Below are positions 1,492 to 63,389 of a stretch of DNA of 64,000 bases, in pieces (position 1 is the stretch's first letter; every line of letters begins with the position of its first letter). This DNA is from Chrysomallon squamiferum. Taxonomy: Eukaryota > Animalia > Mollusca. The stretch is taken from positions 30,194,001 through 30,258,000 of the forward strand of contig CM022665.1 of the NCBI GenBank assembly GCA_012295275.1, read 5' to 3'. The position numbers and the translations under genes are program-made. A model generated the notes under the pieces. It was not told the origin of the DNA. It made no database searches and was given only the letters and a program-made list of their open reading frames with translations.

Positions 1492-2304
1492 CTCTGCCTT
1501 GTGGAATTGGCAACAACACTTGTAGACAGTACATCAGCTGTGCCAACATTAAAATCAGGTAAACTATACATTTTATATCTAGCAAAAAAACAAAAGATGC
1601 TTTATCTCAGATATTAAAACTCAGGCTTGAGACATGAATATCCACAGGATCAATCCTTCTTGGTGTATCCATTGGGCTATTTCCCATTCCAGACTGTGAT
1701 GCAGCTGGTTTATCAAAGGTTGTATTATGTGCTTTGATGTCTTTGCTTAGGTGGAAAATGTTTTTCTGTTAATTGATAAGAGTAACCCATATCTTAGAGC
1801 AGCTCATTTTCTTTTTTTATGTGATCATTATGCAAGTAAAATTTGACTGATTAACAACCATTAATATTGTATTACCAGAATTTAAACAACACAGCATACA
1901 AGATTTCTTTAAAAATGTGCATGAAATATCTTGTTTGTTTGGGATTTTTAAATTTATTTATTGATTTTTTAGAATTTGATAAATGGAATCAAAACATAAT
2001 TTAATATTCAGTTAATTTTAGTTATTGAAAAATAAAAGGATATCTTTATTGTTAAATTTCATAATAAGTATGTTATTAAATATTATGAACTTTTTTTTTC
2101 CTTAATACATTTAAAGTAAAGATATTACTAAAGATTTTTAAATTCCTGTTCAATTTTAAAATAAAATTGTTTGTTAATAAGAAAAACTTGTGAATAAATT
2201 ACAGGTATTCTCCAGCAGGAAAGATGAAAAACCTCTCATTCTGTGAAAATTATGTAGACAATTTAATGGGACCCTGGCCGTTCAGACCACTGGAAATGTA
2301 CATG
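1492..2304 (+). CDS. First two visible exons of gene 1: LPCGIGNNTCRQYISCANIKIR-YSPAGKMKNLSFCENYVDNLMGPWPFRPLEMYM
   Basis: Long polypyrimidine tract then AG at 1490-1491; donor gtaaac at 1559; acceptor acag before 2205; donor gtaaga at 2305. The phase 2 junction AG|G encodes Arg. Confidence 0.7.
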
Positions 2305-5300
2305 GTAAGAAAAACATATGCAAACATCAGAGCAATAGCATATACTTATATACATAATCATACTGATTTTAACAGTGGACTCTTTCAAAGCTTGGGACCA
2401 TTGACATATGCCAGTTAGAGAGTGTGCCAGTTTAGAAAGATTAAAATGACATGAAATTGGAATATGTGTTAATGCTTTATTTTGAATGTCGTAGTTAAAT
2501 GACTATCAGAGTGTTAGCTGACAAAATTGCTGACACTGCTGACTGTGCTTTTTTTCATGTTTTTCTCCAAAGAAAACTCCTCTGTCAAGGCCTCCAGATT
2601 TAATATAGGTCACAAAAGATTGTTTTCTTTTAAAATTGGACTGGAAATGGATCTTGTCTGGTGAAACCATCCAGATTTTTGAATTTGCCAATCATTACTT
2701 GGTTTTTCTCTCTGCTAAAATGTTGGTTTTGTACAATTGCCAGTAATGGTCACTATGTTTTAGAATGTCAGATACTGTCTGTCTTTCTATCTTAAATTAA
2801 TGGCTAAATCTTTTGTTTGCACAATGGATTTGATGAAAACTGTTCTATTAATTTTACTTTAGTCTGTAATGAAAGTTTAATATGTTGCCATTTTTTAGAT
2901 TGCTCTGTCATTACGAATTCAGTTAGACAATGCCAAATATGCACCATAAGAATTTTTCAGACCAAATGATTTTAAATCTAAACAAGTCAATTTGCTTAGG
3001 TATCTACACACACTAATAATAATAATCTTGTTGATTTAGCTCCATATAGTAGCTACAAACACTAATAATAGTAATCTTGTTGATCTAGCTGCATTTAGTA
3101 ATTACAAGAAGTTCAGGATCATTGTTTATCAAGTTTTCAAAGAAACATGACTATTTCATCTCATGCAACATCGTGATTATTAGCAAAATTGCTACTGGTT
3201 TAGACAGAAATCTGGATTAGTAAAATTCTGGTTTTAACAGAGTTCACTGTAGTTGTAAACAATCTTATACTAAAAAAAAGAGTGTGTGTATGGTGAAACT
3301 ATAACACACACATACATATGTGCACACATATAACATCAAAGATACACAAATATGGATGACATACTCTTCCTAATTGCATTCAAGATATATAAGATATGTC
3401 AACACAGAATTAACACATACCTTTATATGTATATAATCAATATGTATGACATTTTTTGGCTTTCTTTTTTTCTGAGAAAAAATACATCAACTTTCAGTTG
3501 TGTAACAATTCAAGTAATAATAAGAAGAAATAATAATAAAATAATAAAACACAAATATGAAAAATTAGACATTTTATAATAGGTTCCAAACATGTTTTGA
3601 TGTTTTGTTGTTTGGAATTTTGTTTGTTTGTTTGTTGTATTAACGAAAACAGAAAAGCAGCTTATTCATGTAAGAAAAACAAATTAGTAGTGTCTGTTTT
3701 GCCTAATTGCCTGTCAAGGATAAAATTAAGTTCATACAATGAGGCTGATCAGTAAATTAACTAACAAAGCGATGGCTGCCGTACATTATCTCAGTCTTCA
3801 TTGCAGAATTGATTAATGAGACAGGATTGCAGCTTAGTTTCAGGAACACAAGATGTAAAACACTAACAGTGCTTAAACACTGTGACGCTGTTAAACACTG
3901 TAGATATTAGAGGAGAAATGTAACCAAGCTGTTAAATACTGTAGATATTAGAGGAGAAATGTAACCAAGCTGTTAAACACTGTAGATATTAGAGGAGAAA
4001 TGTAACCAAGCTGTTAAATACTGTAGATATTAGAAGAGAAATGTAACCAAGCTGTTAAACACTGTAGATATTAGAGGACAAATGTAACCAAGCTGTTAAA
4101 CACTGTAGATATTAGAAGAGAAATGTAACCAAGCTGTTAAACACTGTAGATATTAGAAGAGAAATGTAACCAAGCTGTTAAATACTGTAGATATTAGAAG
4201 AGAAATGTAACCAAGCTGTTAAACACTGCAGATATTAGAGGAGAAATGTAACCAAGCTGTTAAATACTGTAGATATTAGAAGAGAAATGTAACCAAGCTG
4301 TTAAACACTGTAGATATTAGAGGAGAAATGTAACCAAGCTGTTAAACACTGTAGATATTAGAAGAGAAATGTAACCAAGCTGTTAAACACTGTAGATATT
4401 AGAAGAGAAATGTAACCAAGTTGTTAAATACTGTAGATATTAGAGGAGAAATGTAACCAAGTTGTTAAATACTGTAGATATTAGAGGAGAAATGTAACCA
4501 AGTTGTTAAATACTGTAGATATTAGAGGAGAAATGTAACCAAGCTGTTAAACACTGTAGATATTAGAGGAGAAATGTAACCAAGTTGTTAAATACTGTAG
4601 ATATCAGAGGAGAAATGTAACCAAGTTGTTAAATACTGTAGATATTAGAGGAGAAATGTAACCAAGTTGTTAAACATTGCAGATTTTGCAGGAGAAAGTA
4701 ACCAAATGTTTAAGCATTTTAGATGCTGTAACAAAAATGTTACTTAATCATAGATGGTTGGTGTGCCTACACAAACATGCACATATACACATTGTATTTA
4801 AAGGTTTCAACTGACTTAAAAATAATACTTACATATAATTTTGGGTGACATAATAATTACTTTTTAGCAAAAATCTCTGGTGAACACAACAACACCAGCA
4901 ATTGTTATTACTACTACTATTACAATAACTTACAATAATACTAACACTAATACTAATACTACTAATAATTTATAATTAGGTGATCCATTTACTGTGTATA
5001 TGCATATCAAATTTCTTACTGATTAAGGAAAAACAATATTATTTCATTATAATTCCAATCTGTTAAAGTTCATTTCTTGTAACACTTTTATTTGGTCAGA
5101 TTTGGATCTCATAATCTATAAAAAAAAACAACAACAATAAGACAACAGTGTAAAAACTTTGAAATTATGCATACAAAGGAATGTGTAAAAATATTTCCTG
5201 TAATTGTCTCTTAAACATTAAATGGTGAGTGGCTGTTGTCTGTTTAAGACATCAAGAACATCGCTTTGTCAATGTCAGATTTATCATTAAATAGATTTCT

Positions 5301-6509
5301 GACTGACTCCGAATTTGATAATTATAATTTGAGAGTCATAACTCAGACAATAATCAGTTCATTAATGATCATCTTCAGTAGGAATTAAAGAAACAACAAA
5401 TTGGATGTGCATAGATTTCTAATTAGATTTTAATTTAGATGATGCTTTTCAGTTTTTTTAACCATTTTACCAAAAAATAAAAAATAAAATACATGAGTAT
5501 GGCTGTGTCTAATCTTATAATTACTTGTTCAGCCATTTTATCAAATTATGCACAGTCCACTAGATTCACCCCAAGCTGTCATTACTTCCGTAATTACAAG
5601 ATCAGCGAATACAGCTGAAACTACTACTACTATTACCACCACTGCTACTACTACTGTTACAACTACTAGTATTACTATTAGTTATTACTGCTGCTGCTGC
5701 TGTTACTATTACTACTACTATCATTTCTATTATTACAACTGCTAGTATTACTGCTAGTTATTACTTCTAGTTATTACCACTTGTATCATCACGACCACCA
5801 AACATGACATCAAACATGTAATATTCAAATGTAGGTGACACAAGTCAAAATTATAAATGTTCAGAGCAAAAATTAAAAAGAAATTATTTTAATATTTCTA
5901 AGAATCTGATTGTCTCACTAGGTATTTGTGTCAAACATTTTAATAAGCCTGCAAATTCCCTTGATATAGATAATTTAATTGAGGTATTTTTTTTAAATCT
6001 TCGTGGTTTTTTTTGGTTTTTTAATGTTATATTTAATTTTAATTTTTTTTTCAGTTACATATTTGAATAGTAAGAATTGACAAGCTATTCAAAGCCTACA
6101 TTGTAATATATGTATATAAATGATTATAAATATTATTAAAAGTAAAAATATATACCAGCTACACATCTTCATACTCTGTTTTCAATTAAAAAAACCATTA
6201 GAACTTTGTAATATGTTAAAATTTATAAAAAAATTAACATTCTTAAAATTCTTACACTAATAATTTAAATAAAAATTAATTTATGCATTATTATGTAATT
6301 AAGTGTGTGGAATAAAAATTAATTTATGCATTATTATGTAATTAAGTGTGTGGAATAAAAATTAATTAAAATATTATCTAATACTAAAAATATCCCAACA
6401 GAAACTGTTGAAATCAGAACCCATGCTTTTCCAGAAATCTGCAAATCTCTTGAGAAATCAAAATCCCTAGAGCTATTACATGTATATTCCAAGGGGTATT
6501 TTTTTGTAT

Positions 6510-6547
<38 letters not shown>

Positions 6548-7193
6548 CTTCTTTTTTTTTTTCTATCTGATCCCACCTAACTGGAACTAATGGTTCATTT
6601 TCTCTGCCGATGCTAGTTTGTAGACCTTTTGCATCATTAGCAGATGGTAATTAATAAAGCATTCGACCATACAAGGCTTGCTGGGGAAAATCTCTTCAGG
6701 CTAAAACAAGGCTTTTGATCTTTCAGAGATAACCATGATGTGCTTGGAAAAAATCTCTCATTGTGATGAAGTTTATTGTTTCAGAGTTCTTAAGTCAGAT
6801 AGTCATAACATGTACTTGTCAATTGATGCATATTGATAGGCTGAAGTAAATTGGCTTTGACAGTGTTTTATCATACGTTTTTCTAGTTATTAATGTGTAT
6901 TTTTTTTTTTTTTTTTTTTTTTTTAGATGAGATAGGAGGGAAAAAATGATGTCTGATGATAGTTTTTCATTTTTTTTTTTTTTGTTGTTTATTAAATTTT
7001 GCTATTATAAAGTGTTTTAAGGTGTCTGAGGAAAATTTTGATAAATAGTTGAGTTCATCTGGTGTATTTGAATGTGTGTGTTTGCACACATACTCCACAA
7101 AAATCCATACGTACATGTGATACATATATTGTAAAAAAGAAAAGAAAAGCAGTTTATTTTTCAATTTTAGAGATGTTCCTAACATATAATTTT

Positions 7194-7280
<87 letters not shown>

Positions 7281-7503
7281 CGGGAGAGAGAGAGAAGCAG
7301 GGAGGTAGCTGTTGTACATGTTTCATTGTAAAAGTCAGTTCCATAAAATGCTTTGTAACTGTAATTTTCAATCAAGCAGTTCAAAAAGTTTCAAGAGAAA
7401 ATATACCAGAATATTTACCTGAAACCTTCAATCTTTTTAGTGTCTATGGAATCCTAGAGTTGGCATTATGTTACATTCAGAAATTAAACACGCACACGCA
7501 TAT

Positions 7504-7541
<38 letters not shown>

Positions 7542-10500
7542 ATAAAAAAAGAAGTAAATATTGCAGTAAATTCAGTTGTGAAATTTCCTATAAATTAGCT
7601 CCTTACTTTTAAAGAGCTCTTTGCTTTACAATACACAGAACATTATTAAAATATCTGTAGAACTATGTTATGTTAATATAATAAATGGTGTCATTAATTT
7701 GACAGAAAAATATAGTGGTGTCTATACTGACCTAATTATTATTCATAAATGTAAATAAAAATTTTGTTACTGGCTAAACTGCTACATTCTGTCATTCATA
7801 GAGTGACTGTGGAATAAATTTCCATTCAGTAAAAAGTGATTTTCCTAGTCGTGTAATTACACTGCATTTAATATACATTAATCTGAAAGTGAAACATGAT
7901 CTTGTTCTTAATAATAATAATGATGATGATGATGATAATAAGAATGAAAGTAATAATTATGATGATGTTTCATAATAGAAGTAATAATAATAATAGTAGT
8001 AGTAATAAAGATGAAGATGTCAATAGTAATAATTATGATGATGTTTGATAATAGAAATAATAATAATATTAGTAATGACAATGATGAAGATGAAAATAAT
8101 AATAACATTATAAGTAATAAATAATTATGATCATGAAAATGATAATAATGATGAAAATGATGAAAGCAATTATAATAATAGTAGTAATATGAAACTGTAT
8201 AATAAGCATCCACTCAGATCAGTCCTTTTTAATGTACTTATTGTTCTGTTTAATATTATGGCCAGTGCACTATAAGTTGTTCATCAAAAGACAAATATTT
8301 ATTTTCCATTGTTTCTAAAAATGTTTTTGGAGAAGATTCTATATTTACTAACAGATATGTCTATCTCCTGCAGATTTAAATAATAAGCTGCATATTTGAC
8401 ATATGATAGTCTTTCATACAAAATATATTGAGGTGTTTATAAACAAATATGGATTCATTCACCCATCTGTCCTTGATACTTCAATGTTTTTCTTTATACC
8501 AATTTTGTGAGGTTTGTCTATACAATAATGTGCATGTACGTTGCTTAAATGTTTTGTTGATGGACTTTGTTTTTAATATTTCTTCATATCTTCTCATTAT
8601 ACAAAACCTTTCTTACAAATTCAGTAATTTTACTGAATTATTTCATATTAAAATAATTAATCCACATGTAAATATTTTTATAATCTGCACAAACTTAAGT
8701 AAAGTTCTTGCTTGTACCCAGGGAATATGATATTATGGTTTGCACACACATAAAAAAAATGCTATTATTGCATTTATTCATATATAATAGAATTATGCAC
8801 TTAATTTGAGGGTTTTATGCTCAAAACTTGAGGGTACATGTTATACACAAGGAAGTACATAGCATTACAATGGAATGGTTTTTTAGTAGTTAAGTAGTAG
8901 CTTCCCTAAACACAAGTACAAATATACCACTAAACTCTCCTTTTTTAAATACATCTGATCATGACATGGCCTGTCTGTTATCTTCACGTCTGATACATGA
9001 GAAATATATTTTTTGGATTTAATTCCCATCATGAGAGGTCAGTAATAAATGTGAATAAATATGGTAATCTTGTTCAAAACACTAATATTTTGTTTCTATT
9101 TACAGACATCCTTCAATGCTCCAACTGCCCAAGTTTTAAATGCTACAGGAACTTTTGATCATTTTGCAAAATCTTTCATCTTGCATTTTCCAAGTCATAT
9201 TTTCAAGTAAGCTTAAGTTATTTTAACTTTTATTATTATTTTCTTTTAACCTCTTCACTTGAGATTCATGTACAATAAATAAATGAATAAATAAAATAAA
9301 GATATAAAATTGATTTTCCATTCAAAAATGAAAATTTCTTCTGAAGCATATAAAATAATTTATTATTTTCTCATGTTCTCATTCAGATTAAGAAATAAAA
9401 GCACATGGAAAGCCATTAGTTCTTTTTCTTTGAACAAATGGTTTTTAAAATGCTGATGTGAAGGCTTCGTATTCTTGATGCATATTTGTTTTCCACCAAA
9501 ATGGCTGAAGTCAATAACAGCGCCATTATTGATGTGAAATGAGAAAAGAACTTGTGTTCTGATCATATTTATTTATTAAATAAAAATGTATGACTTTATT
9601 TTCAGTTTCAGTATCAAGACTGAAATATTTGGATAAAGAAGTTAATTTATTGTTTTGTTCTTCAGTTGTATACTTCATAATATATATTATTTTAACAAAT
9701 TTATTCTGTTTTTTCAAACAACAGTCTAAAATTAGTATGTTTTACAATTATATATTTAGCAATGTTAGAAGTATCAAATATTGATATTTTAAAATGTTAA
9801 TATTTTGATTTTTTCCTGTTTATTTTTTTTCAGCAATTATGTTGAAGTGGTTGAAGTTCTTTGTGAAGTTGATGATGGTAATAGCACAAGTTTTGAAACA
9901 ATTTTCACAGAGAAAATCTCAAATCAGAGTAGTGCATTTTCCATTGGAACAGTAACTTGGAATGATTTAAACAGAACTGTCATCAACGAACTTAAGGTGA
10001 TTACTTGCTTAATTACCTGACCTTAATTAACTTTATTAGCTGAAAACAAAGCTGCTGAACCAAACACATTAATGTCATCTGTATGATGTGTGGAATGTAA
10101 ACCTACATCTTTTTGAGCCATTACATAATAGAATTTTAAAATAATTGAAAGTAATACTGCCAAAAACAGGCATAGTTACATCAGTGCTAAAGAACTTTTG
10201 TTACTTAAAGACATAACAGGATTTTAAAATACACTTTCTTAGCAGTTGCAAACAAAGCTGCCTTAGAAGAAGTTTTACAGTCAGATGTATAGTGTAAAGA
10301 ATTTAAAATTGTTACTTATTAGATGACCAGAACTGTTTATGTAGTCAGTTGAAAACAAAGCAGCTATGGCAGATCTAGCAATGTCAGCAGTGTGATATAA
10401 AGAAATTATGATTATTTGTTACTAACTAAATTGTAAAATTGTAGCAATTAGTTAAACATCCAAAACAGACCTAGTAATGCAAACTATATGATATAAAAAA

Positions 10501-13051
10501 CTGATTATTATTACTTATTGATTTACAAAGTTATCAGAATTTATGGGTGGAATCATTTGAAAACAAAGTATATAGATTGTTCTAGCAATGTCAGCCAGAT
10601 GGTGTAATTAGGACTACAGTAATTATAGCTATTACTATTGGTAACATCATAGAGAAATATTTGTAATCTGCTATTCATATTTTACTCACTCACTTACTTA
10701 TGCCCATTGTCTGACATGGATTTCATATATTTATGTAAGATAAATAATGCAGTATCTATGCTGTTAAAAACATTATTTTTACAGTTGATAAGAAAAAGAA
10801 ACACTAACATTTTTCTATATATTTTTAATTTGTTTTTAATTTTTAGAGTGAAAAACTTATTCTGAAGCTGTCATCATCTCAGGATAGTGTGAATGGCACC
10901 ATCAGCTTATCACATGAAGTATTAATTTTTTATCAAAATGATTTTTAATTTTTTTTAGGTTTTAGGGGTTTTTCTGTTATTTAAAAAAAAAAAAAAATAG
11001 TAAATATACATTACTACCAATTACTTAAGTAAAGTGGATAGCCTTAATAATTTCATAGACAAAATATATAAAAAATAATTTAATGTATAAAATGCACATT
11101 TTTTATACTAATCACACATTATAACCTGCTCTCAAATGTTCATGTTTTGTTTTCAACTTATATTTAATACCTTAAATTGTAAAATTGTACAAGACAATTC
11201 TAAATTTTCATTTTAAACAATTATTATGTTACACTATTCTTGATTGTATTATTTAATATTATCATGTATTTACAACTGTTTGTTTATAAACTAGCAATTT
11301 GGAATTGGACATTACGAAGGTTTTCATGCACTCTACAGTCATCAGGGTTGGTTGTCTGGATGTGAGTTCATAGGTCCACGGGCTCAATACCCAGCAGTTG
11401 TCAGTCCTTTTGGACCATGTGTGGAGGCTACTAGTAACTACATTGTGAGTAAATTCTTTTTAATTATTACTCATCTTCTATTTTTAATTACGAAATAAAC
11501 AATCAAATAATACTGGGAATGTATTATTTTTTTAATAATACATGTATATTTATTATTCAGTTTGTTTTTGATATGCATAGGTATGAATATAATTTTTTAT
11601 GGTAAGCTCCATATTTCTGCATATGCTTGTTATATTATTGTCATACTTTATAATTAGAAAAGGTTGATGTTGAAGTAAAATTAAATTAACCACTTGCATG
11701 TTTATTTGGGTTATGTTTCTACATCATCACTGGCATTTTTAAATGTTTTAACAATCATATTTTAGAGTTTATAAAAACATTTTTATAATTTATGATGAAT
11801 GTATGTATGTTTATTAGCACCTGACATTTATATTAATACATAAAAATTTAATTTATGGGTTTTATGTACCAAATTTGGTGTCGTGTGTCTGCAGATAAAA
11901 TAAATAAAATCACATTAAACTGTTGTTAGTTTGAAATAAATATTCACTAAGGAAAAAAAAAGAAAGTAATTTGTGAGATTTGTATCTAGATTATTAATGG
12001 ATGTGGTTATCTGCTTGTTTTTAACAAACCATCAAAATACCCCCCCCCAAAAAAAAAAAAAAAAAAAATAAAAATAATAAATAATAATAATAATAATAAT
12101 AATGTTTATTATTATTATTTTTATTATTTAAAAAAAAAAAAAAAAAAACCCATAAAAAAAAAAAAAAGTTAAAAAAAAAGAAAAAAAAAAAAAAAAAAAA
12201 ATATTTAAAAAATATAAAATCCTACCCAAAACACTAAAAAAGAAAAGAAAACAAAAAATGTAACTTTATAAAATATTTTATCTTTAAATGAATTTTCACT
12301 AATAAACAAATTAGTGGTCAGTCTTGACAGATCAATTCAATATTGTGACCACACACTGATAAAGTCCACCATAATATGTCTGTGCTAACTGCAGATTTTT
12401 AAGGTTGATATATTTGTGACATCTCTCTTAAATTGTTTGTCTTGCTTGCCAGTATGGTCTCTACACTGGCCATCACAGCTGCTTGTGATAAATGAACTAA
12501 GACTGTCAGTTTGAGGGAAACTTCATCTCCATTGTCACAACTCACCAGCAAGTATTTCCTCTGTACTGATGTCTTGTCACTTGCAACATTTTTGTAGCTG
12601 TCCTGAAAATAAAATGCCTTTGTAATAAATATTATAGTTGTTTTCATAACTCTTGGAGAAATATGTTTTATTTGGTTTATCATTCATTTAACAAATTTTT
12701 ATATATGTACTGAAAATAATTTGACTTTGTAATAAATATTACAGTTATTTTCATAGCTTGGTGAAAATGTTTTATTTTTTTTCATTTAGCAAATTTTTAT
12801 ATATGTACTGAAAATAATTTGGCTCTATAGTAAATGTTATAGTTCTTTTCATAACTCTTGGTGAAAATATTTTCTAATTGATTTATCAATTTGCAAATTC
12901 TTTAAGATGTACTGAAAATAATTTGGCTTTGTAATATTATGTTTATAATTTTTATATAAGTACTGAAAATAATTTGGCTTTGTAATTAATTTTCATAACT
13001 CTGTGAAAATGTGTTTTTTTTAATAGATCTATCATTCATTTAGCAAATTTA

Positions 13052-13083
<32 letters not shown>

Positions 13084-14575
13084 ATGAAAATAATTTGACT
13101 TTGCAGTATTATGAGTATTTTCATAACTCTTGGAACACATGTTTTATATGGTTTAGCAAATCTTTATAGATGATGAGAAATATTGGCTTTATTTTTTTGT
13201 GGTTTCTTTAGATAATTTTATGACTATTCAAGGATGTGTGTTATTTAGTTCAACATTAATTTAGCAAATATTTATTGATGTACTGAAAATCTGGCTTCAT
13301 AATATTTTAATTATTTCTTTGACTCTTGGGGAAATAATTGTTTTATTTCGTTCATCATTCTTGTACTGTGGTCCCATAGAGACTTTTGTAACTACTGGAG
13401 AATATGTTTTATTTGGTTTTTCATTTTGCAGATTTTTATACATGTACTGAAATGTTGGGTTTATAGTGTTATAATTATGACAGATATTTCAGTCACTCAT
13501 GGTGAATATGTGTTATTTGATTTATTTTTTATTTGCCCAATTTTTTATAGATGTACTGAAATATCTGGTGTACTGTAATGGATATTTTCTAAACTCTTAG
13601 GGAATGTGTTTTATATGATTTATCATTCATTTAGCAAATATTTATATATGGAGTGAAATATTAGTTTTAGGGCTTGTAGATATAACAGACATTGTCTTAA
13701 TTCTTTGGAAAGTAAATTCTATATGCTTTATTGTTGATAGAGTACCTTTGTTTAGAGGTGCTCAGATAATGATTTATATCACTGTGGTTATCACAGAAAT
13801 GTTCTTAACACTTTGGGAATGTGTTTTATTCTGTTTCTTACTGACTGGGCAACTTTTTATTAATGTAGTCAATTATTGGGTTAATACGACTGTTGTTATA
13901 ACAGCATTAAAACACATTATGTTATCACTCTGGGAATAGGTTTTTATTGTTGAAATGAAATATGTGGTGATTTTGTAATGGCAATATCATCAGTTTCACA
14001 GTGCTGTTGGGATGGTAATTATTGTTAATTAACTGTCTGTATTTCTAAATAGATTCTTTTTGTCTTGACACATATTTGAAATATTTTGTTTTGATTGTTT
14101 TTATATTTGATGACTGACACATAGCAGTTCATCATTTATTTATTTTAAAATTATTATTATCGTTATTATCATCATCATTGTCATCATCATTACCGTTATT
14201 GTCATCATCATCATTATTAGTAGTAGTAATAGTTGTAGTAGTAGCACTTAGTAATTTATTTATATTTTTACAAATTTTATTGGCATATGATAACATTTAA
14301 TATTTCTTTACCTACATAAATGTAATTTAAAAAAATATTAAGAACAAAGAAATGAAAAGGTTTTTAGAACAATAAAATGAAATTAAACACACACTTTTAT
14401 TATTCACAGTAATTTTTTTCGAAAGGTTAGAGACTATAAGAACAAAAATCTGGATATTTAAATAAAATAAAGATTTTGAATATTTCTTATAAATAGATCA
14501 GTGGATAAATGTTTATTGACACCTCAACATAACAGTTGCTATTTATATATGAGTTGTATGTGAGTGAATTTAAAA

Positions 14576-14606
<31 letters not shown>

Positions 14607-15034
14607 ATGTGTGTAATTGTTGTTTATCAATCTAATAAACATTTGACAGATTGTTATTCATGTAAGAACAGTTTTTACATAGAGGTACATAAACATCTGT
14701 TATTGCTCTTATTATTATTTATTTTTTTTTTCATCATTATCATTAATTTGGTTGTCAATGTCATTATTATTTTATTATTAATGAATTAATTATTATTTTC
14801 TATTTTAGGCTTTCTTGCACGCAGGTGATCAAGATGATGTTCATGGTGTGTTAGCCATGTCATTCATAGATGAGAGGGTACATGTAACTTTATCAGTGAC
14901 AGGACTGAAAAACAACATCACCTCAGTCGACATCACTGGACCAGCATTGGCAGGTCAATTTGAACTTGATTAATCTCGCTTTTTGACACTGATAAAATAT
15001 AATTCTGCTAAATCTGTAGTTAATATTGCCAGTA

Positions 15035-15075
<41 letters not shown>

Positions 15076-18000
15076 ATGTGCATGTGTGTGTGTGCATATG
15101 TGTGTGCATATATCTGTCTGTCTCTGTCTATATATATATATGGGTTTGTTTTTTTTGTTCAGTGATATATTTCTACTAAATGTATGTTTAATATATTGTT
15201 CAGTTGCATGTGTATATTCATGATAATTTGACTAAATATTCCAGGACCTCCAACACTTAATATTCCAATAACAACAGCTGGAGCTCTGCATTTAACACTG
15301 AATGCCTCTGTACAGATAAGAGATATTGGTTCATGTAAGTATATATAAACTTTATGTAATCAGTTATAAATTATAAATACACAAACACACAACACATACA
15401 GTTAAATAGATATAATGCATTATCGAGGTATGAATATTTATGGTTTATTATAACTAAAATTTAATCAGCTATAATTTAATACTGTTTGATCATCTTTAAA
15501 TATCACTCTTATTTTGGCTTTTTATGTTTTTTAATTTTTTTAAATTAATAACTATTCCTCTTGGTTTTTTTGTTTGTTATAATACCAACCTACACAGTTT
15601 CTTTCATTATTTTGAATTTATTTTGATGTGACATTTAATTAAAATTTAATATTCAGCTTTAAACCATTATTTCTTGTGTTCAGATATAGAAATCATGGAT
15701 GAAAATTTATTTTTGAATATATACTCAATACTTTTTAAAATAACTCATAATTTATTATAATATGTCCTCTTTCTTAATCTTTCTTCTATATATCTAAATT
15801 AAAATGTTTAAGAAAAATAGTACCTAATAAAATAAATTGAGAATATAAACTCTCTAGTGTTTGTGTTTCTTAATATGTAAAATTAGTCTTATAGTAATAT
15901 ATTGATGTTTTATTATAGTGAAATTTCTGAACAAAGTTACAGTGTGTACTGCAGATTCAGCTGAAAGGTTAGAGATTAATCTAGAAGAAGGTATATATGT
16001 AAGTGTTTGATATCTGACTTCAATACAGTATTATATATATATATATATAAATATAAAATGTATGAATAAGTGTCATTTTGATCATATTTCAATTTTTTAC
16101 ATGATTTAAGGAATTACTTTATAAGAGGTGGAAAAATACAGAAATTAATCAAAATTATTACTTATTTAAAAAAGAAATGTTTAGCTGTGTCAGGAATATA
16201 ATATACTACAGATAATACATTTTATTAAGTTAATAATTAGTATATGTTTAGACTATATTATAAAATATTAACTGTAATATAGAATGTTACTAATGGACAT
16301 TATTAAAATTCGAGCAATGAAACAACCAGTTTCAGATATTGAAAATGCTTAGTGTTATCTAAATTAGTTTCTTGATCAAATTACTGGTAATTCTCTAAAG
16401 TGTGTCATCTTTAAAACAGTATTTATTTGTTGATGCTGTCATAATAAATTTTGTTTTGGATAAAAGCTATAATTGTATTTTAATCCTACACACTGACTTA
16501 ATGTAGTAACTTCAAAGAGGGAATGCATTTTAACGTGATTAGATTTCAAGGATTTTTCAGTAATTTCAATTAAATTATTATAATCCCAGCTATTGTGCAT
16601 GGAGAAAGTTTTGAAAGCATTATAATTTAATTTTTTTTTAAAATTCTGCAGGCACTGATCATTGATGAGAGGAAACTGTATGGAGCAGGAATTTTTCAGT
16701 TAACCAAAGGAAGATGGCTGAAGTTTGAAATTGTGGTAAGATTTGTTTTAAACTTTGCTGCCATTAAACTGAATGAATGAATGTTGTTTCAGAGTTCATA
16801 TTTTTGTCAAATCAGTACATGCTTAAAAGTAAATGTAAAAGTAAATACATTTAACATTAAAGCACTATTCTTGTTTTTTTATGTAAAATGAAAACTGATT
16901 CCAGTCAAAGACAAGCTTGATAGCTTTGAAAAAAAAAAAAAAAAAATGGATAAGTTCAGTAAACAGTTAAATAATTAACCAACCACCAACCAACCAAATA
17001 AATAAAGATATAAAGAAAGAAAGAAAGAAAGAATTTATATTATTCTTAGTTCAAGAAAGCAAACCCCCAAGTTGTCAAAGAATAGATTTATCATTTAAAT
17101 GTTACTGTGTTGTTATTTTTCTTTTAGAACAAAAAATATAAAAATTAAGGAGGTAATTACTTTTATTTACATATCTGATAATAATTGGGATATGCTAATT
17201 AAGGTAGTATGTATAACAGGTTTGAATATATTTTTTTTTTAATACTTCAGATTCATTATTGTATTGAACACTAAGAACTAATCTTTATTAATAATAAAGT
17301 ATGAAAGTAAAATATTAAGTTCATTAGAACCGATGCAGTTTTATATTTTATTGTCATTCTATTGAGAAAAAGTTTTCTCTGAAACAAGTAAAACAGTAAA
17401 TGAAATATATTTAGGCCATCTCTAATTTCAACCAAAGCTAAACTTTAAAATTTCAGTTGAAAGGAGTTGAAGGACACATCTCTTATGTTACACTGAATGG
17501 TCCAGATCAGTGGGGTTTCACAGGCTCAGTGAAATACAAACTTACTGAATATGCTGTCTTGAAAGATAATGGTGATGTTTTTATTGCTGGATCTATAAAA
17601 GTGAGTTACAGTCAATAAAAATAGTTTAATTAAAATCTAACTGAAGTAAGCAAATGTGTGTGTGGATGTGTGTGGGTCTGTGTGTTGTGTGTATGTCTGT
17701 GTCTAAATGTATGTGTGTGCATGTATGTCTACATACTTGTGTTCATGTGCACATTATTCATGCATGTGTATCTTTTTAATATTTGCTGAATACAGATATT
17801 TTATTCATTCTGGTTAGAGATGAAGTGTAATCCTTTTTAATTTTAATTTAAATGAATCATTAATAGTTGGAATAATTTTCAATAATGTTGCTGAATTCAG
17901 TTTAGTTTTAGGATTTGAATTCTGAATTTCTGAAATGTTATAAACTTTATTTGAATACAGATATTTTTAAATTGTCTGAGATTAATGATGATCCATTTGT

Positions 18001-18688
18001 AAATATTAAAAAATTCTAAATTGTCTTTGAATTCAGTTTATTTAAATCAAAAATTGTTTTGCTAACAATGTAGAATTTGAATGTTGGATGCACTAAAATA
18101 TTACTGCATTCTATATATACAAATAAAAATAATTTTTTTATAGTTGTTACATTTTGAGCAAAAGCTTATGGACTGTATCTTAAGTAAAAACACACTGATA
18201 ATGTAGATGAGGGATTTTTTTTAAAATGTCACAATTCTGTAAACACATAAGTATTAGTATATATAGTAATTTTCTAAATTGTTAGTAAAATCTAAATAAA
18301 TGTTTATTATTTATAATTATAGGATCTGAGCAGTGACTTTCTGCTGGCTCTGTGGAAGGGTTTGATTACTATCAACATAAAGACACACACAAACAAATCT
18401 GAAAATTTTCTGTTTGGAAAAGTAAGAACGTTTCAAATTTTGATAAATTAATGCATTATTATGTCATATTACAATAATAAAAAAACAACTTTATTATTAG
18501 CAGACAAATTGTTTTGGTATCTAATGGTTTTGCTATCTATTATTTAATTATATGTGAAACTCTATTTTGCTCTTTAAAATTTTCATTTTGTGTTTAAAAA
18601 AAATGTTTCTGGCATTTAGAATTACCTGTGTTAGTGTTAATTATTTATAGGTTTATTAAACTTTTACCTCTTGTGTGTGTGTGTCTGT

Positions 18689-18724
<36 letters not shown>

Positions 18725-19244
18725 AATTTTATTTATTTATTACTTCTTGGTTATATGTAATCACAAATTATAGCCATGACAAACTTATTCTATGAAATGA
18801 ATGAATTTTTCAAACAGTAGAACCATCTTTCATTTAAAATTAATATCCTATAGGTGATTAAGATAAAATTCTATATCAACAGCAAATAATTATTTATTAA
18901 TTCAAACATGAATTTTATTTTCAGTTGTCTAGCCCAGGTGTTTGGTATTGTACAGAAATCAAAGGTGCACCATGTAAGTATATGAAGATTTCTAAAAACT
19001 TTTGTGTTTTGTATTTTGTAAAACCCTCTGTTATATTCATTGTGTCTACAGTCATAAAGCTGAAATACTTTTTGATTAGAATAGATATTTCTGTTGATTT
19101 CTCAATACAGTCTTAGAAATGAGGAATGGGTTTGATTTATTTGTAAAATTTAGCTTTTTAACACCACTAGGCCTGTTTTTCAGTATGTGAAAGAACACCC
19201 TTTGAGTGATATAACAGCAGCTCAGTCTAACACTCATTACTAAA

Positions 19245-19318
<74 letters not shown>

Positions 19319-20690
19319 TGAATCTGATGAGTGATAAAATGGTTACAGATATAGAATTTTATCTTAATCACCTATAGGATATTAACAGTTTTCTCTGTTT
19401 ATTCACAGGTCCTTCTGTGAATTTAAAACCAGAGTATGGTGTTGTTGATGATGGTGCAGAGGTTGTTCCAGCAAGTGGAATAGCTTCCATTGTTTTGGAT
19501 AGAACTAATGTTTTGCAGTACAGGTAATCTATCTATATGTTGTTGTCTTTTGTTAGATGTATGCAGATGTTACTGGTTTATAAAAGATTTGTCCATTTTA
19601 CTACCAGAATGTTTGATCAGATTGAAGAACACCTTCCTTGCTACTATGTTTGACAGTTATTTGCCATCTTTGTGTTTCAAACATACTCTTACATGCCACA
19701 TTAGATCAGCTTAGTAAAAAACTGAAAAGCTCTTTGATTATAAACTTTACATTTACAATGAGTTGTTAGTGAAACCTTAATATATTATGGTATATGTGAA
19801 TTATTTTATATACTGGGATAGATCTTTCTAATTAAATAATAAAATTTGTATCTTTATAAAATATTTTTTTATTTTTTTTTCATTTCTTGTGATACTTAAA
19901 ATATTGTCCTTTTTATATAAATTATCCATAAAGAACTCTTTTGTTTTATTAATAAAAATAACTTGTATTACTTTCAGTATCTTGGTGGAAAATTCTCAAG
20001 TGCCTGCTACCAAGAAACTAAAAGCAGAAATTGTTCATGGATCAAAAACCATTTTACCTATCCAGCTAACATATTCTAAACTGTTTAATAAAGCTTTTGA
20101 AGTACATGTAAGATTATAATACTGTTTTCTGTTAGAAAAAAACACAATAAATCTCCTTATGGCAGGATGTACAACCATGTAGCTAAATTAGTGGAGTGTG
20201 TTATTATTACAAGGATCAGAGTCATCATAACCCCTATAACTCTCTACACATAATTATCTGTATGGAGGTATAATGTATATCAACAGTCTTTTAATCACTG
20301 GTATTTTTAATTCTTGTATGAGATAGCTAAAGCCATTGTTTGTCATTTTCAGCTTGAAAAATAATGTTATTGCATATTAATTAAAAATTATATAACGTTT
20401 TAACAACTCCTACTTCAATTTTAATGCTGACATTATTTATTTATTTATGCAGTTTATTGTTTTATATGTAGAATGTCATCACTGAGCCTGAATTTCAGCT
20501 GATTTCAGCTCTCTCCACAGAGAGAGTTCACTTACGAGTGTTGGAGGTTGATGGCAAAAAAGCAAGACTAACTGGAAAAATCCCACCTGTCTTTAGAAGT
20601 GTCTGTACTCAACCAAAGGTGAAACTGAAAGAAAATTTACTATAAATTATAAAATTTCATACCTTTCATGTAAAAATAAATAAATAAATT

Positions 20691-20723
<33 letters not shown>

Positions 20724-21172
20724 ATAAAAATAATTAAAACAAAAACAAAAAATAATAAAAATTAAAAAGAACCTAAAAAATGAAAAAAAAGAAAAAAATA
20801 AAAATTGAAGTTAGAAAATGTCTCACCCATCATTCAGCTAATTTGTTAAAAATAAATAAATAAAAAATTCAGTTAGAAAATCTTTCTTTATAGTGTGTAA
20901 GAAATAATTATCCTTTATGATTTAATCTTTTATATTCACGGGAGATGTAATATTTTCTCAAGTTAGATGTGATATTTTCTCAAATTAAGTAAGTTCTTGA
21001 ATGTTAAAACATATTCACAAATGTTATGAGATGCTGATATTTACAAGCAATATCTCTTAACTATATAATGATTAGTTTTACAGTTTCAGACTGTCTATAC
21101 ATGCATGCTGCTGAAAACATGCACATAAGCATATGTACATGCAAAACAAAAGACTCACAGATATGCTCATAA

Positions 21173-21207
<35 letters not shown>

Positions 21208-22647
21208 CACACTTATGCTGAAATACAGACATGTATATGTTTATATACACAAAAATCTATAGATATGGCAAATATCACACACACACACACACTATGACAC
21301 ATTCACTCAGAGATATTTAATAATTTATTTTCTGATTTTTTTTTCTAGAATATTATTGTGGGTGAAGAACATGGTAACTGGTCAACAAAAGCTGTCCCCT
21401 TTGGAAGTCTGTACACTTTGCTTGAAGACCAGCTAGTGTTTACCTTCTCTGGTAATGATTCTGTTCACCTGATGTTAGACAAGGTATTTTCTTTCATTTA
21501 TTTTGTTTTAAATTTAGAAGTCTAGCACAATAGTTTCATAAATGTTAATCAGATTTAATTACAATTTATACTTTTACTACATCACAGTTTTAACGATGAT
21601 ATTATTATTATTGTTGTCGTTGTTGTTGTTATTGTTTTTATTACTATTACTGTACTTGTTATTGTTATCATTATAATCATTATTTTTAATATTAAATATA
21701 ATTTGTATTAAAAGATATTTAAAAACATTTATAATATTAATGGTTTGAAGACAAAAGCAATAAAATAAAGCATTTAAAAATATTTTTAAAAAAATATAAT
21801 TTCAGAAATTTACTGGACTTTGTTCTAGTCAATCATATTAAAAAAAAAAATAATGTGTTCTGAAACTGCAACATCTTAAATAAATAAAAATTAAGAAATA
21901 AATAATAAAAATTCAGACAGATTTATATACCAGGTCCTATGTTAAAATCAGATTTTTTTAACAAGGTATGAGTCAAGGCAATACATTAAATTGTTTTTAA
22001 AAGTGTACAAGTTAGTTATATTTTCCTAGAAATATTATATCTTTAAGAAATCTATGGAAAAAAGTTCATGTTTATAAACAATCCAAGAAATATTATATTC
22101 ATTTAATTATCAGAATGAAAAAACATTTAAAAAAATTTTCTTTTTAAATTAAATAAAAATATTTTGTTAAAACTGAGATCTGTAGGAATATGAGCATAAT
22201 AAAATAATTTATGCAATAATCTGTTTAAATTATATAAATAAATAAATAAATAAACAAACAAACAAAATAAATAATAACAGTATAAAATAAATAAATAACT
22301 AAAAATATGTAACATAAAAAATTACAAATCCCAAACAAAACAACCAAAAACACTTCTTCATTTTTTTATTATTTTTTTTTTTGACTGTAACAATGTATAT
22401 TGAAATTATTAATATGGTAGACTGTATCTCAATTTCAGGAACATTTTGATGATTGCAACTTTGAAAATGCCACCCAAATTGGAGCACCCCCTCACACTTC
22501 TGACAAGCTGTCTGTAGACTACAGATTAAAGAAATTGGGGGTGCAGTACTTCAGCTCTGAAGCAAACTGCAACTCAACACAGCCTCTGAAACTGATTGTC
22601 AAGATTTTACATCCAGGTATGACTCTGACCCTGTGTTGTATTATAAT

Positions 22648-22686
<39 letters not shown>

Positions 22687-23697
22687 ACAGTTACAAACAC
22701 ATCATCATAAAGATAGTATCATTTGTTTTTATCAGATTTAAAACTTAATTTAAAATCTTTTAAGGAAAGGACATAATTCTGCTATTACAGTATAAAATTG
22801 ATATGTTAAGAAATATATATAATTTTAAAATTAAAATTTTAAAAAAAAATGTATTTAATATTTTTGAAATTATTAATTATTGCAAAATTATCACAATTAT
22901 CTTTTTTTTATTTTATTTACATGAACTTTTAAATAATTCTGATTTGTTAATATTTTCCCCCAAAATAATTCTTAAATGATTAAATGAAAATGTTGTTGGT
23001 TTTATAGATAAACTTTATTTACTTCACAATTGGTTTAAAGCTTATTTAATGTATCTCACTATTCATAAGCTGTTTTGTATTACAAGTATTCAGAAATATT
23101 TGTTAATTCATTTTGACAATTTCTATTAAGTTCTTGTTTAATGTTTATTATTCATAATGATTTTATTAAATATAATATTTATTTTTAAAATTCCTATCCA
23201 TTTTTATTAACTTTAGTTTTTATTATTTTTTATAAGTTTATAAGTTTTTGTTAACATTTTGTTTATTTTATTAATTTTTAAATAATTTTTGGCAAATGAA
23301 CTTAACAGTTTCACTCAATTTGCAGTTTTTATTTTAACTTAATTTTGAGGAACTGAATACATATCAACAATTCACTTCATTTTTTATTTATTTTAGTTTT
23401 CATTTTGTTTTTCATTTTATCAAATAAAATTGTGCATAGCCGTATATTTTTTTTAAATTTCCATTTTTTTATTAAAAAATTTTAGTTCCTGTAAAACTGG
23501 ACTTGAATGAGTGTTCAGAGTCACTGTATGATGTATGGAGAAAACAAGAACTAAATAAATATATAACTCCAAACCCTGCTGGAGCTGCAGTTGGTGGATT
23601 GATTGCTGGAATTATTATTCTTGCCATCTTTGTTGTGTGGGACAGGAGAATCCATGACAAGAAGAGTGGAGATGTCTCAATGTTTGAAAGATTCTAA
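1492..23697 (+). CDS. Uncharacterised type-I membrane glycoprotein, 5' end upstream of the window: LPMO-like terminal segment, 4 CHRD-like repeats, phytocyanin-like domain, TM helix, short tail
   Basis: 19 AG/GT-bounded exons join phase-consistently into one open frame: 1492-1558, 2205-2304, 9106-9206, 9834-9996, 10847-10918, 11295-11444, 14809-14953, 15245-15334, 15919-15998, 16652-16735, 17457-17600, 18323-18421, 18925-18973, 19409-19523, 19978-20107, 20472-20618, 21349-21483, 22439-22616, 23486-23697 (TAA). Many N-x-S/T sequons (NNT, NLS, NAT, NST, NQS, NRT, NGT, NIT, NAS, NKS, NWS, NDS). Hydrophobic AAVGGLIAGIIILAIFVVW is followed by DRR. Positions 1-10 (CATAAAGATG|gtatac) may be the end of the preceding exon. 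Linkage across the 6.8-kb intron 2305-9105 rests on phase compatibility only. Confidence 0.8.
1645..1790 (+). mobile_element. Decayed SINE-like interspersed repeat
   Basis: Shares TCCATTG..CT.TTTC...TTCCA..C.GT...TTTATC.AAGG with 56785-56880. Resembles, from memory only, a tRNA-derived gastropod SINE. Confidence 0.45.
3887..4705. repeat. 41-bp minisatellite, 19 near-perfect copies plus a degenerate 20th
   Basis: Unit GCTGTTAAACACTGTAGATATTAGAGGAGAAATGTAACCAA with an exact 41-nt period (3887, 3928, 3969 ... 4666). No spacers. Confidence 0.95.
6268..6366. repeat. Perfect tandem duplication of about 43 bp
   Basis: AATAAAAATTAATTTATGCATTATTATGTAATTAAGTGTGTGG occurs twice, followed by a partial third copy. 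Confidence 0.8.
7198..7295. repeat. (GA)n microsatellite
   Basis: Direct reading; source of the spurious RERE/SLSL ORFs. Confidence 0.95.
9106..20618 (+). CDS. Four CHRD-like repeats of gene 1 (about 9106-10918, 14809-15998, 16652-18421, 19409-20618)
   Basis: Typical CHRD pattern: GAGIFQLTKGRWLKFEIVLKGVEGHISYVTLNGP...DLSSDFLLALWKGLITINIKTHTN...LFGK; VHVTLSVTGLKNNITSVDITGPALAG; ASGIASIVLDRTNVLQYSILV...LISALSTERVHLRV...RLTGKI; TWNDLNRTVINELKSEKLILKL...VNGTI. Repeats 1 and 2 are more divergent. Confidence 0.65.
10035..10640. repeat. Highly degenerate tandem repeat of about 105 bp
   Basis: AAACAAAG recurs near 10043, 10250, 10353 and 10561; CTAGCAATGTCAGC near 10375 and 10582. Confidence 0.5.
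12603..13940. repeat. Degenerate tandem repeat of about 100-120 bp, roughly 12 copies, decaying rightwards
   Basis: Recurrent GTACTGAAAATAATTTGGCTTTG...TTTTCATAACTCTTGG...TCATTCATTTAGCAAATTTTTATA. Confidence 0.75.
19249..19314. repeat. (GA)n microsatellite
   Basis: Direct reading. Confidence 0.95.
21349..22616 (+). CDS. Phytocyanin/plastocyanin-like (cupredoxin) domain of gene 1
   Basis: Translation IIVGEEHGNW...EDQLVFTFSGNDSVHLMLDKEHFDDCNF...LGVQYFSSEANCNSTQPLKLIVKI follows the phytocyanin pattern VG..GW...GD.LVF.Y...HxV..V...Y..C...G..YFxC....HC..GMKL.I.V. Confidence 0.7.
23486..23697 (+). CDS. Last exon of gene 1: TM helix and 18-aa cytosolic tail ending in FERF
   Basis: Acceptor tttag at 23481-23485; contains ORF 23503..23697; TAA at 23695-23697. 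Confidence 0.8.
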
Positions 23698-24560
23698 AAC
23701 CAATTTGTAAAAGATAATAACATTCTGGTGTTTATTTTTATGTTTCGGTATTCAAAAGATTCTAAATCAGATTTTAAACCAATAATAATATTGCAGTGTT
23801 TTATTTTATATTTCAGTGTTTGAAAGAGACAAAAACAGTTTTCAAAAAGCAGAGATAATGTTTGGGTGTTTCTTTTTATGTTTTAATATTTAAGTGATTC
23901 AAAAACAAATTTTAAATATATAAAAAACATTCTGCAATTTTATTTGAAGGATTATAAAACAGATCTGCAAGACATAATAATATTCTGACATTTTATTTTA
24001 TGTTTCAATGTTTGTCAGATTCTAAACAGTAGAAACAAAATATAATTTCAGAATAGTATGCCATATTATTTTTCAATATTTGAAAAATTTGAAAACAGCA
24101 AGAACAAAACAGATAGTAACAGTATTCTGTTTAATGTTTGACAGATTTTAAAACTGTGGAAACAGTTAACAGCAGTTCATTCTATGTTAGAATGTTTTAA
24201 AAATTCTAAACAAGCAGAAACAAAGCAGATGGTATAGTTTATACAGTCCATTTCATGTCGTAATGCTTGAAAGATTTGAAAATGCTGGAAACAAAGCATA
24301 AGATTATTTTATTATTCCAAAATGTTTGTTCCATTTTATGTTGTAAGTGTTTGAAAATTCTAAAACAGAGTGCAAACAAAACCGAAATCTACCAAAATTC
24401 CATTAATTCATTTCATTTCATTTCCATGTTTGAAATATTCTGAACCTCAGCATAAAAAAAAGGTAAAAATGTTCTGATATTCCAAATGACATTCCATTTT
24501 ATGTTTCAGAATCTGAAAGATTTTAAAAATGAAGAAACAAAACAAATAATAACATTCAGT
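23677..24560. repeat. Degenerate tandem repeat of about 68 bp (about 13 copies) starting in the last codons of gene 1
   Basis: Core TCAATGTTTGAAAGATTCTAAAAC recurs near 23677, 23746, 23813, 23883, 23939, 24005, 24073, 24131, 24189, 24260, 24344, 24423 and 24506. Confidence 0.75.
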
Positions 24561-62119: not shown

Positions 62120-63307
62120 TTACAATTTTGTTTGGGAAGGAGGAAGAGAACTTTGGGTTAGTTTCTCATGAATCATGTTTGTCACTTTGTCAGACATGTC
62201 TAGCACTTTGTTTGACAGGCTGTTAGCAAACTGGGTTAGTATTGGCTCAAACATCTCCATTGCTCTGGCCACAACCTTGTCATCATCCAAATGAGAGGTA
62301 TTTGATGCTGTAGTGGATGCAGATGACATGCTGGAGAAAGCTTCATGTGTGCTGTGGAATGCTTTTTCTAACATCTTCGCCATGTCTTCCGAGTTTTCCT
62401 CACATACCTAAAACAAGACAACAACAAAACATAAATTTTGCTTATACATCAGAATGGGTTCAGATGTTAGTGATGTTTTAATATCAGTTCTCTTCTGACT
62501 GACAAACTCGAGGTTCAACCTAATTTCATGTCAATGAAGAGTTCATTTTGCTGTGCTCAATTTTTAACTTATTTATTATGTGACTTTTTAAATGAAAATT
62601 TATATTCTTCTATTTTCCTTTCTTTTTAACCCACAAATAATGATTTATATGAATTAACCATCACAATGGATTTAGGACAGCATATGTCTTTAAAAATAAA
62701 ATCAAAAATCAAAAAATAAATCTTTGAAATATTACCAGAATGGATTTAGGACAGCAGAAATCTTTCTTTGTTGAAAACCCCCAAAAAAACATTTTTTTAG
62801 TGTAGAAAGTATAAAAGGTTGTACCTTTTTGTAGAGAGCTCTCGACCGTAGGACAATCTCATCCAAATCATCAACAAGAACATTGCAAGACTGGAGATTG
62901 TCTGAAAATAATAAATACACATTAAACTTAGATACTGACTTCTTAATGGAGATTTAGGAACTAATACTATAAAAAACTAATACCATCAAGTTGATCCAAT
63001 AAATTTGTTTTTAAATGATTTAAAATAGCTTTTGTAAATTAACAGTTCCCAAATAGATCTTTTCTATTAATAAAACAAAAGAATATAAATTACTCAAAAT
63101 AACTACATTTGTATTAGAAAACATTATTTTAATGGTGTATATTTATAATAAGTGTGTTAGGTTTAATGATTTGGACTGCTTCATTTGTGGCTAATACCAT
63201 TAGGCCTGGCTTTTTAATTATCACATTAACTTTCACATAGAATTTATTTTCTTGAATTTCTTTCTTTTGTGGGTTTTAATTTAAACAAAACAAAGAATAA
63301 ATAAATA

Positions 63308-63389
<82 letters not shown>

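Follow-up and report, generated by a model that had tools for sequence, protein, structure and literature searches.

A predicted membrane-anchored protein of Chrysomallon squamiferum with an LPMO-like head, CHRD repeats and a phytocyanin-type domain, and the mollusc-annelid family to which it belongs

What does a mollusc do with a protein that seems to carry three copper-protein folds on one membrane anchor? The question is raised by a stretch of 64,000 nucleotides of the Chrysomallon squamiferum genome (GenBank assembly GCA_012295275.1, contig CM022665.1, positions 30,194,001 to 30,258,000, forward strand; "the window" below means this whole stretch). An initial annotation, made from the letters alone, described there a gene at 1492-23697 on the + strand, encoding a segment like that of lytic polysaccharide monooxygenases (LPMOs), four CHRD repeats, a phytocyanin-like domain and a transmembrane helix. 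It proposed a cell-surface protein that modifies or binds glycans, possibly by means of an oxidative head on a CHRD stalk acting on a chitinous matrix. The answer reached here is that each domain is a known fold and that the combination, and the family that bears it, are undescribed. As to function, I propose, with confidence a little short of even, that the protein is a non-lytic binding or adhesion receptor of the cell surface, whose LPMO-fold head carries an optional copper site.

The gene and its family

The gene is real and spliced. Rebuilt from splice signals, it has 19 exons totalling 2261 nucleotides; its 18 introns all run from GT to AG, and the spliced frame runs uninterrupted through 752 amino acids (aa) to its stop codon, with 14 predicted N-glycosylation sequons and a single hydrophobic peak (aa 715-733, 19-residue mean 2.69), very nearly the 753 aa, sequons and helix first described. 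The model is not a product of chance, since it agrees in 521 of 754 columns (69% identity, 3 gaps) with residues 160-912 of an NCBI-annotated protein of 912 aa, LOC121371163 of Gigantopelta aegis (P0001), and since tblastn with P0001 matches all 19 exons in order. RNA contigs, from four runs of one study, cover all six junctions of exons 1 to 7, two of them (2304>9106 and 9206>9834) in three runs and the other four in every run. Exons 1-6 are found together on one contig (X4 record 16), exons 2-7 on another (X3 record 13). The 6801-nucleotide intron at 2305-9105, at which transcripts might have divided the model into two genes, is spliced out in three of the four runs, and the contigs that cross its junction rule such a split out. 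The 12 later junctions, between exons 7 and 19, rest on homology together with RNA word share, 9-13% of sampled words in 16000-24000 against 12% for coding exons. The long intron also holds a 41-bp minisatellite (3887-4705, 20 copies, 95% matches), and a degenerate 98-bp tandem array lies at 12583-12936.

The model is incomplete at its 5' end: exon 1 is internal, and further exons lie upstream of position 1. No upstream exon was found by tblastn with P0001 in 1-1491, while one RNA contig extends 594 nucleotides past exon 1 into sequence outside the window; about 475 are needed to go from exon 1 to the start codon of the homologue. Judged by the Gigantopelta protein, some 159 N-terminal residues are upstream of the window, including both histidines of the predicted copper brace. 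The fold tests described below were run on P0001, not on the window protein.

How far does the gene extend beyond Chrysomallon? Exon 18, used as a query, found no homologue and no PDB match, and a Pfam scan of the 19 single exon frames gave nothing useful. Exon 6 led to P0001, and P0001 to three Haliotis proteins and one from Patella. A profile built from four of this set (P0005 was excluded for a mis-modelled insert) gave 406 matches, 21 of them at E <= 1e-30. Taxa are named for 18 of these 21, and the family they define takes in gastropods (Gigantopelta, Haliotis, Patella, Littorina, Nucella, Biomphalaria, Plakobranchus, Elysia and Aplysia), a protobranch bivalve (Solemya), chitons (among them Liolophura), cephalopods (Argonauta) and the annelid Owenia. 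No oyster, mussel, arthropod, cnidarian or deuterostome label occurs among the 18 named, which is the result of a search and not proof of absence. A quick tree of 19 rows, without bootstrap and with eight fragments or mis-models excluded, pairs the window protein with that of Gigantopelta (SH-aLRT 100). The gastropods group in it as expected, and the members are therefore likely to be an orthologue series; the gene is likely single-copy.

Database labels for the members read "uncharacterized" or "hypothetical", with the exception of Owenia, called "CHRD domain-containing" in UniRef. In four genera the gene seems to have been annotated as two separate models on one contig (P0011/P0021 in Nucella, P0014/P0018 in Liolophura, P0015/P0023 in Aplysia, P0016/P0020 in Argonauta), which masks the architecture in databases. 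The published literature, as searched apart from subscription papers and supplements, yielded no description of the domain architecture, of SCE4755 (a family considered below) or of ten of the family's accessions, though proteomic or expression data filed under different gene identifiers could include the family. What the topical literature treats is known LPMOs or chordin only, PMC9977687 and PMC10885894 being, in their available parts, on chordin itself. The claim that no described protein combines these domains thus stands, and the architecture matched no characterised family.

Folds from head to tail

An AlphaFold2 model of P0001, built from 22 sequences (mean predicted local distance difference 82, predicted template modelling score 0.76), bears out the LPMO-like segment as a fold. 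Residues 19-183 match residues 1-195 of the AA15 LPMO TdAA15A (5msz; Z 10.2, root-mean-square deviation (rmsd) 2.6, 142 aligned), the AA10 enzyme BtLPMO10A (5wsz, Z 9.2) and the X325 protein 6ibh (Z 8.4, rmsd 3.0, 124 aligned). Only the last 26 or so residues of this core fall in the window. Exon 1 (1492-1558) encodes the last strands of the head, placed there by the fold match of the homologue and with a 3' junction seen in all four RNA runs; exon 2 (2205-2304) completes the core and begins a conserved extension, C-x-x-Y-x-x-N-L-x-G-x-W-P. The head is the best-conserved extracellular domain: where coverage is good it is 34-61% identical to that of P0001, against 11-45% for the repeats (window protein left out). 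A Foldseek search with the model of all 912 aa brought up nothing but multi-domain beta proteins, with template modelling (TM) scores near 0.1, which were discarded as noise.

To which LPMO-like family is the head closest? It has the same fold as AA15 and AA10 from the first histidine on, but the likeness is one of predicted fold: the structural alignments hold 12-16% identity, and Pfam LPMO_10 matches none of the 22 members at E <= 1. The NCBIfam family SCE4755 (NF043005), of polysaccharide-monooxygenase-like proteins, matches 18 of the 22 at E <= 0.1 (best 4.3e-14), P0001 itself scoring 27.6 bits, below the cut-off of 75. Structural neighbours in the Atlas are unnamed algal (TM-score 0.76) and giant-virus (0.73) clusters and a BIM1-like cluster (0.57), and these, with SCE4755, rank above LPMO_10. 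Atlas features and structure set the head beside the SCE4755 clusters, the feature matches, all below 0.9, being treated as leads only. Those clusters, however, are bacterial, whereas here the head bears a long extension and is joined to a body of CHRD, phytocyanin and transmembrane parts; it has closer kin in the unnamed algal and viral clusters and in 109 stand-alone proteins to which I return below.

The extension of the head is interrupted by repeat 1, which is exactly exons 3-5 (9106-9206, 9834-9996 and 10847-10918), with phase-0 introns on both sides. Exon 6 (11295-11444) follows, with a conserved segment G-W-L ... G-x-C. This is likely not a linker but the remainder of the extension, folded back onto the LPMO core, because it is strongly conserved (G343, L345, G365 and C367 are kept in 15 of 15 rows), because alignments to AA9 and AA11 LPMOs continue into it (P0001 model residues 331-369) and because stand-alone relatives carry a like segment, found, weakly, right after the head in 6 of 128 lower-ranked matches.

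Four CHRD repeats had been claimed. Three are upheld by fold: repeat 2 (exons 7-9; 14809-14953, 15245-15334, 15919-15998) matches the loop-less superoxide dismutase (SOD) SOD1 6flh (Z 8.2, rmsd 3.1, 101 aligned), repeat 3 (exons 10-13; 16652-16735, 17457-17600, 18323-18421, 18925-18973, which also encode a Cys-containing linker) matches SOD-like 1ej8 (Z 9.2, rmsd 2.8, 110 aligned), and repeat 4 (exons 14-16; 19409-19523, 19978-20107, 20472-20618) again matches 6flh (Z 9.7, rmsd 3.1, 104 aligned). Repeat 1 is probably a divergent CHRD, by its profile likeness to repeat 3 (HHalign 81%, E 1.2e-5). Like the others it shows eight strands, the sixth of them followed by a helix, and its search of PDB folds gave no SOD- or CHRD-specific match, only generic beta-sandwich rows at Z <= 7.0. 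Repeats 3 and 4 resemble each other at 96.6%; for repeat 2, profile comparison with repeats 1 and 4 gives little or nothing (0.2% and 0.4%). With a model of repeats 1-2, the three best viral matches in Foldseek (E 5e-3 to 9e-3) all carry a CHRD domain. Neither chordin nor any other CHRD chain was among the PDB fold matches, the library's content being uncertain on this point.

By sequence, Pfam CHRD (PF07452, cut-off 24.1) finds 7 of the 22 members at E <= 1 but neither the window's single exons nor P0001. Two of six rescanned members exceed the cut-off, Owenia with 31.9 bits on repeat 3 and Solemya with 37.1, its best stretch on repeat 4. A distant fragment, P0051, has a canonical-looking CHRD end and then the same phytocyanin and transmembrane parts (99.4%). 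Repeat 1 is missing from the Owenia model and from P0022; either a gain or a loss could account for this, since P0017, which stands beside Owenia in the tree, carries it.

The domain next to the membrane is a phytocyanin-type cupredoxin (exons 17-18; 21349-21483 and 22439-22616), as had been read from the letters. Residues 736-840 of P0001 match mavicyanin (Z 13.9, rmsd 1.8, 95 aligned), and the sequence matches stellacyanin 1jer (E 6.5e-7). The disulfide cysteines are kept (C789 in 11 of 11 rows, C827 in 9 of 9), while the type-1 copper ligands have been replaced: the cysteine is found in none of 15 rows, and the first histidine only in three Haliotis rows, at the ligand positions of stellacyanin, read off the hidden Markov model alignment. 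A role as electron carrier is ruled out, because the copper cysteine is missing in 15 of 15 rows. Fold and disulfide are those of the plant proteins, but this is an animal protein that lacks their copper cysteine; the early-nodulin-like proteins are copper-free relatives of the phytocyanin type.

Exon 19 (23486-23697) encodes a juxtamembrane helix, the one predicted transmembrane helix (aa ~713-735) and a 17-residue tail that ends F-E-R-F before the stop. The ending F-x-R/K-F is found in the window protein and in 15 of 18 homologue C-termini (16 of 19 in all). Owenia P0013 and P0022 end instead in a hydrophobic stretch with no tail, which looks like a glycosylphosphatidylinositol (GPI) anchor signal, and P0022 is also without the phytocyanin domain.

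One might suppose from these parts a membrane-bound modulator of bone morphogenetic protein (BMP) signalling, of the chordin type, or an ephrin-like ligand. The whole-protein Atlas model is indeed nearest to chordin clusters, at low TM-scores of 0.27-0.28, and the juxtamembrane domain also fits ephrins (Z 11.3). Like chordin, the protein has tandem SOD-like barrels lacking metal loops, such as the accessible text of PMC13382577 describes for chordin's metal-free CHRD domains, and Pfam CHRD is passed in the two members named above. But chordin is secreted and has four VWC domains, whereas here no VWC family is among the Pfam matches of the 22 members, a transmembrane helix is predicted and repeat 1 interrupts the head. 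Phytocyanins outscore ephrins both by fold and by sequence. Moreover, the same accessible text has the CHRD domains of chordin largely dispensable for BMP inhibition. Orthology to chordin or to ephrins is rejected, given the lack of VWC and the stronger phytocyanin match, and a signalling role of this kind is very improbable.

The copper site and what the protein may do

In P0001 the brace would consist of His19, which follows the signal peptide, His77 and Tyr172, assigned by motif and fold alignment; the cleavage site was read by eye together with the fold alignment. TdAA15A has a like set, His1, His91 and Tyr184 (PMC5823890, in its available part). Of the 17 animal members that cover both columns, 10 have the two histidines; in the other seven, one or both have been replaced. 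In place of His77, two abalones have Thr, four heterobranchs have Gln, Met, Ile or Leu, and one chiton paralogue has Arg. His19 is kept in 15 of the 17; the two that have lost it, Biomphalaria and the chiton paralogue, retain the head without either histidine. The abalone and heterobranch losses fall, in the quick tree, on separate, well-supported branches beside brace-bearing sisters, and the brace-broken chiton copy forms a long branch. Where the brace is broken, the head is still the extracellular domain that has changed least: despite the loss of His77 in two of the abalones, the Haliotis head remains 60-61% identical to that of P0001.

The axial tyrosine is the part of the site that lies in the window (codon 1530-1532, equivalent to Tyr172). 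It is assigned by motif and spacing, and every one of the 19 covered rows has Tyr or Phe at the position. In AA9, AA10 and AA15 a Gln or Glu two positions ahead of this aromatic residue is a second-sphere feature. Here no such residue is conserved: the window protein and P0001 have Arg, one row in 19 has Gln, and the residues beyond the window protein are R, K, Q, F, T, I, Y, A and S. Two other residues, Glu73 and His106, are the same in all of 13 rows, and Glu73 might fill the second-sphere role from a different position.

Could the protein nevertheless be an enzyme? It might be a membrane-tethered copper mono- or peroxygenase outside AA9-AA17, nicking chitin or another matrix glycan, with the CHRD stalk as spacer; the abalone proteins, those of the heterobranchs and one chiton copy would then be pseudo-enzymes. 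In the structural alignments the histidine that follows the signal peptide falls on residue 1 of the AA15 and the AA10 structure alike, and the distance from Tyr172 to the end of the alignment, 11 residues, is that of Tyr184 in TdAA15A. Stand-alone relatives keep both histidines in 81 of 91 cases and the tyrosine in 83 of 94, and there are fusions of the head to DOMON and cytochrome b561 (P0034) and, weakly, to hevein (P0061, E 0.002, but lacking His1). Yet the brace is not family-wide, the position two before the tyrosine is not conserved, the nearest structural clusters are not those of LPMO_10, and no chitin-binding family occurs among the Pfam matches of the 22 members; no feature tested ties the protein to chitin. 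I consider such an enzyme possible but doubtful. The oxidative half of the earlier proposal, with its chitinous matrix, is accordingly weakened by the seven broken braces and the missing Gln/Glu, while its other half, a protein of the cell surface that binds glycans, is compatible with the data.

A different use of copper is exemplified by Bim1. The available parts of PMC10952591 and PMC7924993 describe it as membrane-anchored and active in copper uptake, and describe YcnI as holding copper by one histidine and another residue. By analogy, the N-terminal histidine here would take up Cu(II) at the cell surface and pass it to an importer, and Glu73 or His106 might replace a lost His77, as in the "mono-histidine brace" of YcnI. 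The first histidine, kept in 15 of 17, and Glu73, kept in all covered animal rows, fit this idea, as do the match to X325 6ibh and the BIM1-like cluster among the Atlas neighbours. X325/Bim1 proteins resemble the family in its predicted LPMO-like fold and membrane anchoring and in the His brace that some members would have, but they are fungal, single-domain and GPI-anchored and have Asp as fourth ligand, in contrast to mollusc proteins of several domains with a predicted transmembrane helix and tail. Bim1 has no need of a 700-residue stalk and a conserved tail, and a scavenger would not be expected to keep its head when both histidines are gone, as in Biomphalaria and the chiton paralogue. 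Copper scavenging is an improbable account.

I prefer a role in binding, without lysis, because head, stalk, transmembrane helix and F-x-R/K-F terminus have been kept while the brace was lost repeatedly. The protein would be a type I membrane glycoprotein, with the domain order predicted from the homologue: a signal peptide, an LPMO-fold head led by His1 (freed when the signal peptide is removed), three or four CHRD barrels that hold no metal, a phytocyanin domain that lacks copper, next to the membrane, and the transmembrane helix. Head and stalk would expose a surface to an extracellular glycan, a matrix protein or a neighbouring cell, and the F-x-R/K-F terminus may link the protein to export or to a scaffold. 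Copper at the tip would tune binding, not be required for it, and would be bound only where a lineage keeps both histidines. Consistent with such a role, the other two copper-protein folds, CHRD and cupredoxin, are metal-free, and X325/Bim1 are LPMO-fold proteins with a His brace and no known polysaccharide activity (PMC7924993).

Several points weigh against a binding receptor. Catalysis stays possible in the brace-intact members, because these ten of 17, Gigantopelta included, keep His19, His77 and, where that position is seen, Tyr at 172. The stand-alone relatives also keep the brace, and the one fused to DOMON and cytochrome b561 suggests redox chemistry in the wider family. The invariant Glu73 and His106 could supply some other chemistry. 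The CHRD domains of chordin bind glycosaminoglycans through basic clusters (PMC13382577, accessible text), but the repeats in the window have net charges of -7, -4, +2 and +1, neutral to acidic and unlike that basic heparin site. Binding of sulfated glycans is therefore not supported. Finally, the tree comes from a quick search with no bootstrap.

Stand-alone relatives, neighbouring genes and the wider family

Of 128 lower-ranked matches to the profile, 111 match the head, and removal of two family fragments leaves 109 stand-alone relatives (within P0028-P0151). Most have an intact brace and many a C-terminal hydrophobic stretch. They are apparently an undescribed His-brace family. P0034 joins its head domain to two DOMON domains and cytochrome b561 and looks like an LPMO-like domain with a trans-membrane electron supply of its own. 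P0031 and P0049 have a Hint module fused to the head domain, and in P0061 the head lies near the weak hevein domain.

These relatives invite a bolder view of the whole. The mollusc protein may be the first animal member of a new family of copper His-brace enzymes outside AA9-AA17. It would then be an oxidase of receptor-like form that spans the membrane, combines three copper-protein folds (LPMO, SOD-like CHRD and cupredoxin), edits surface glycans in brace-intact molluscs and annelids and has become a pseudo-enzyme receptor at least three times; its large, uncharacterised sister family among algae, viruses and environmental sequences would include members fused to their own electron supply. 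I think this view unlikely.

An ordinary neighbour follows directly downstream: at about 28500-60000 on the + strand is the multi-exon kinetochore gene KNTC1/ROD, 8 of whose 12 scanned exons match KNTC1_N, ARM_KNTC1 or Rod_C. Facing it on the - strand, at 62124-63944, are exon-like frames of a further gene, two of which were scanned with no useful Pfam match.

The gene defines an undescribed, ancient cell-surface family of molluscs and annelids and points beyond it to a wider, unnamed His-brace family. It also gives an animal context for CHRD outside chordin and for the phytocyanin-type domain outside plants. Nature has also provided orthologue pairs in which the brace is intact in one and broken in the other, Gigantopelta or Patella versus Haliotis, and Littorina versus Aplysia. 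Such pairs could separate LPMO catalysis from copper handling, and both from the plain binding of a ligand.

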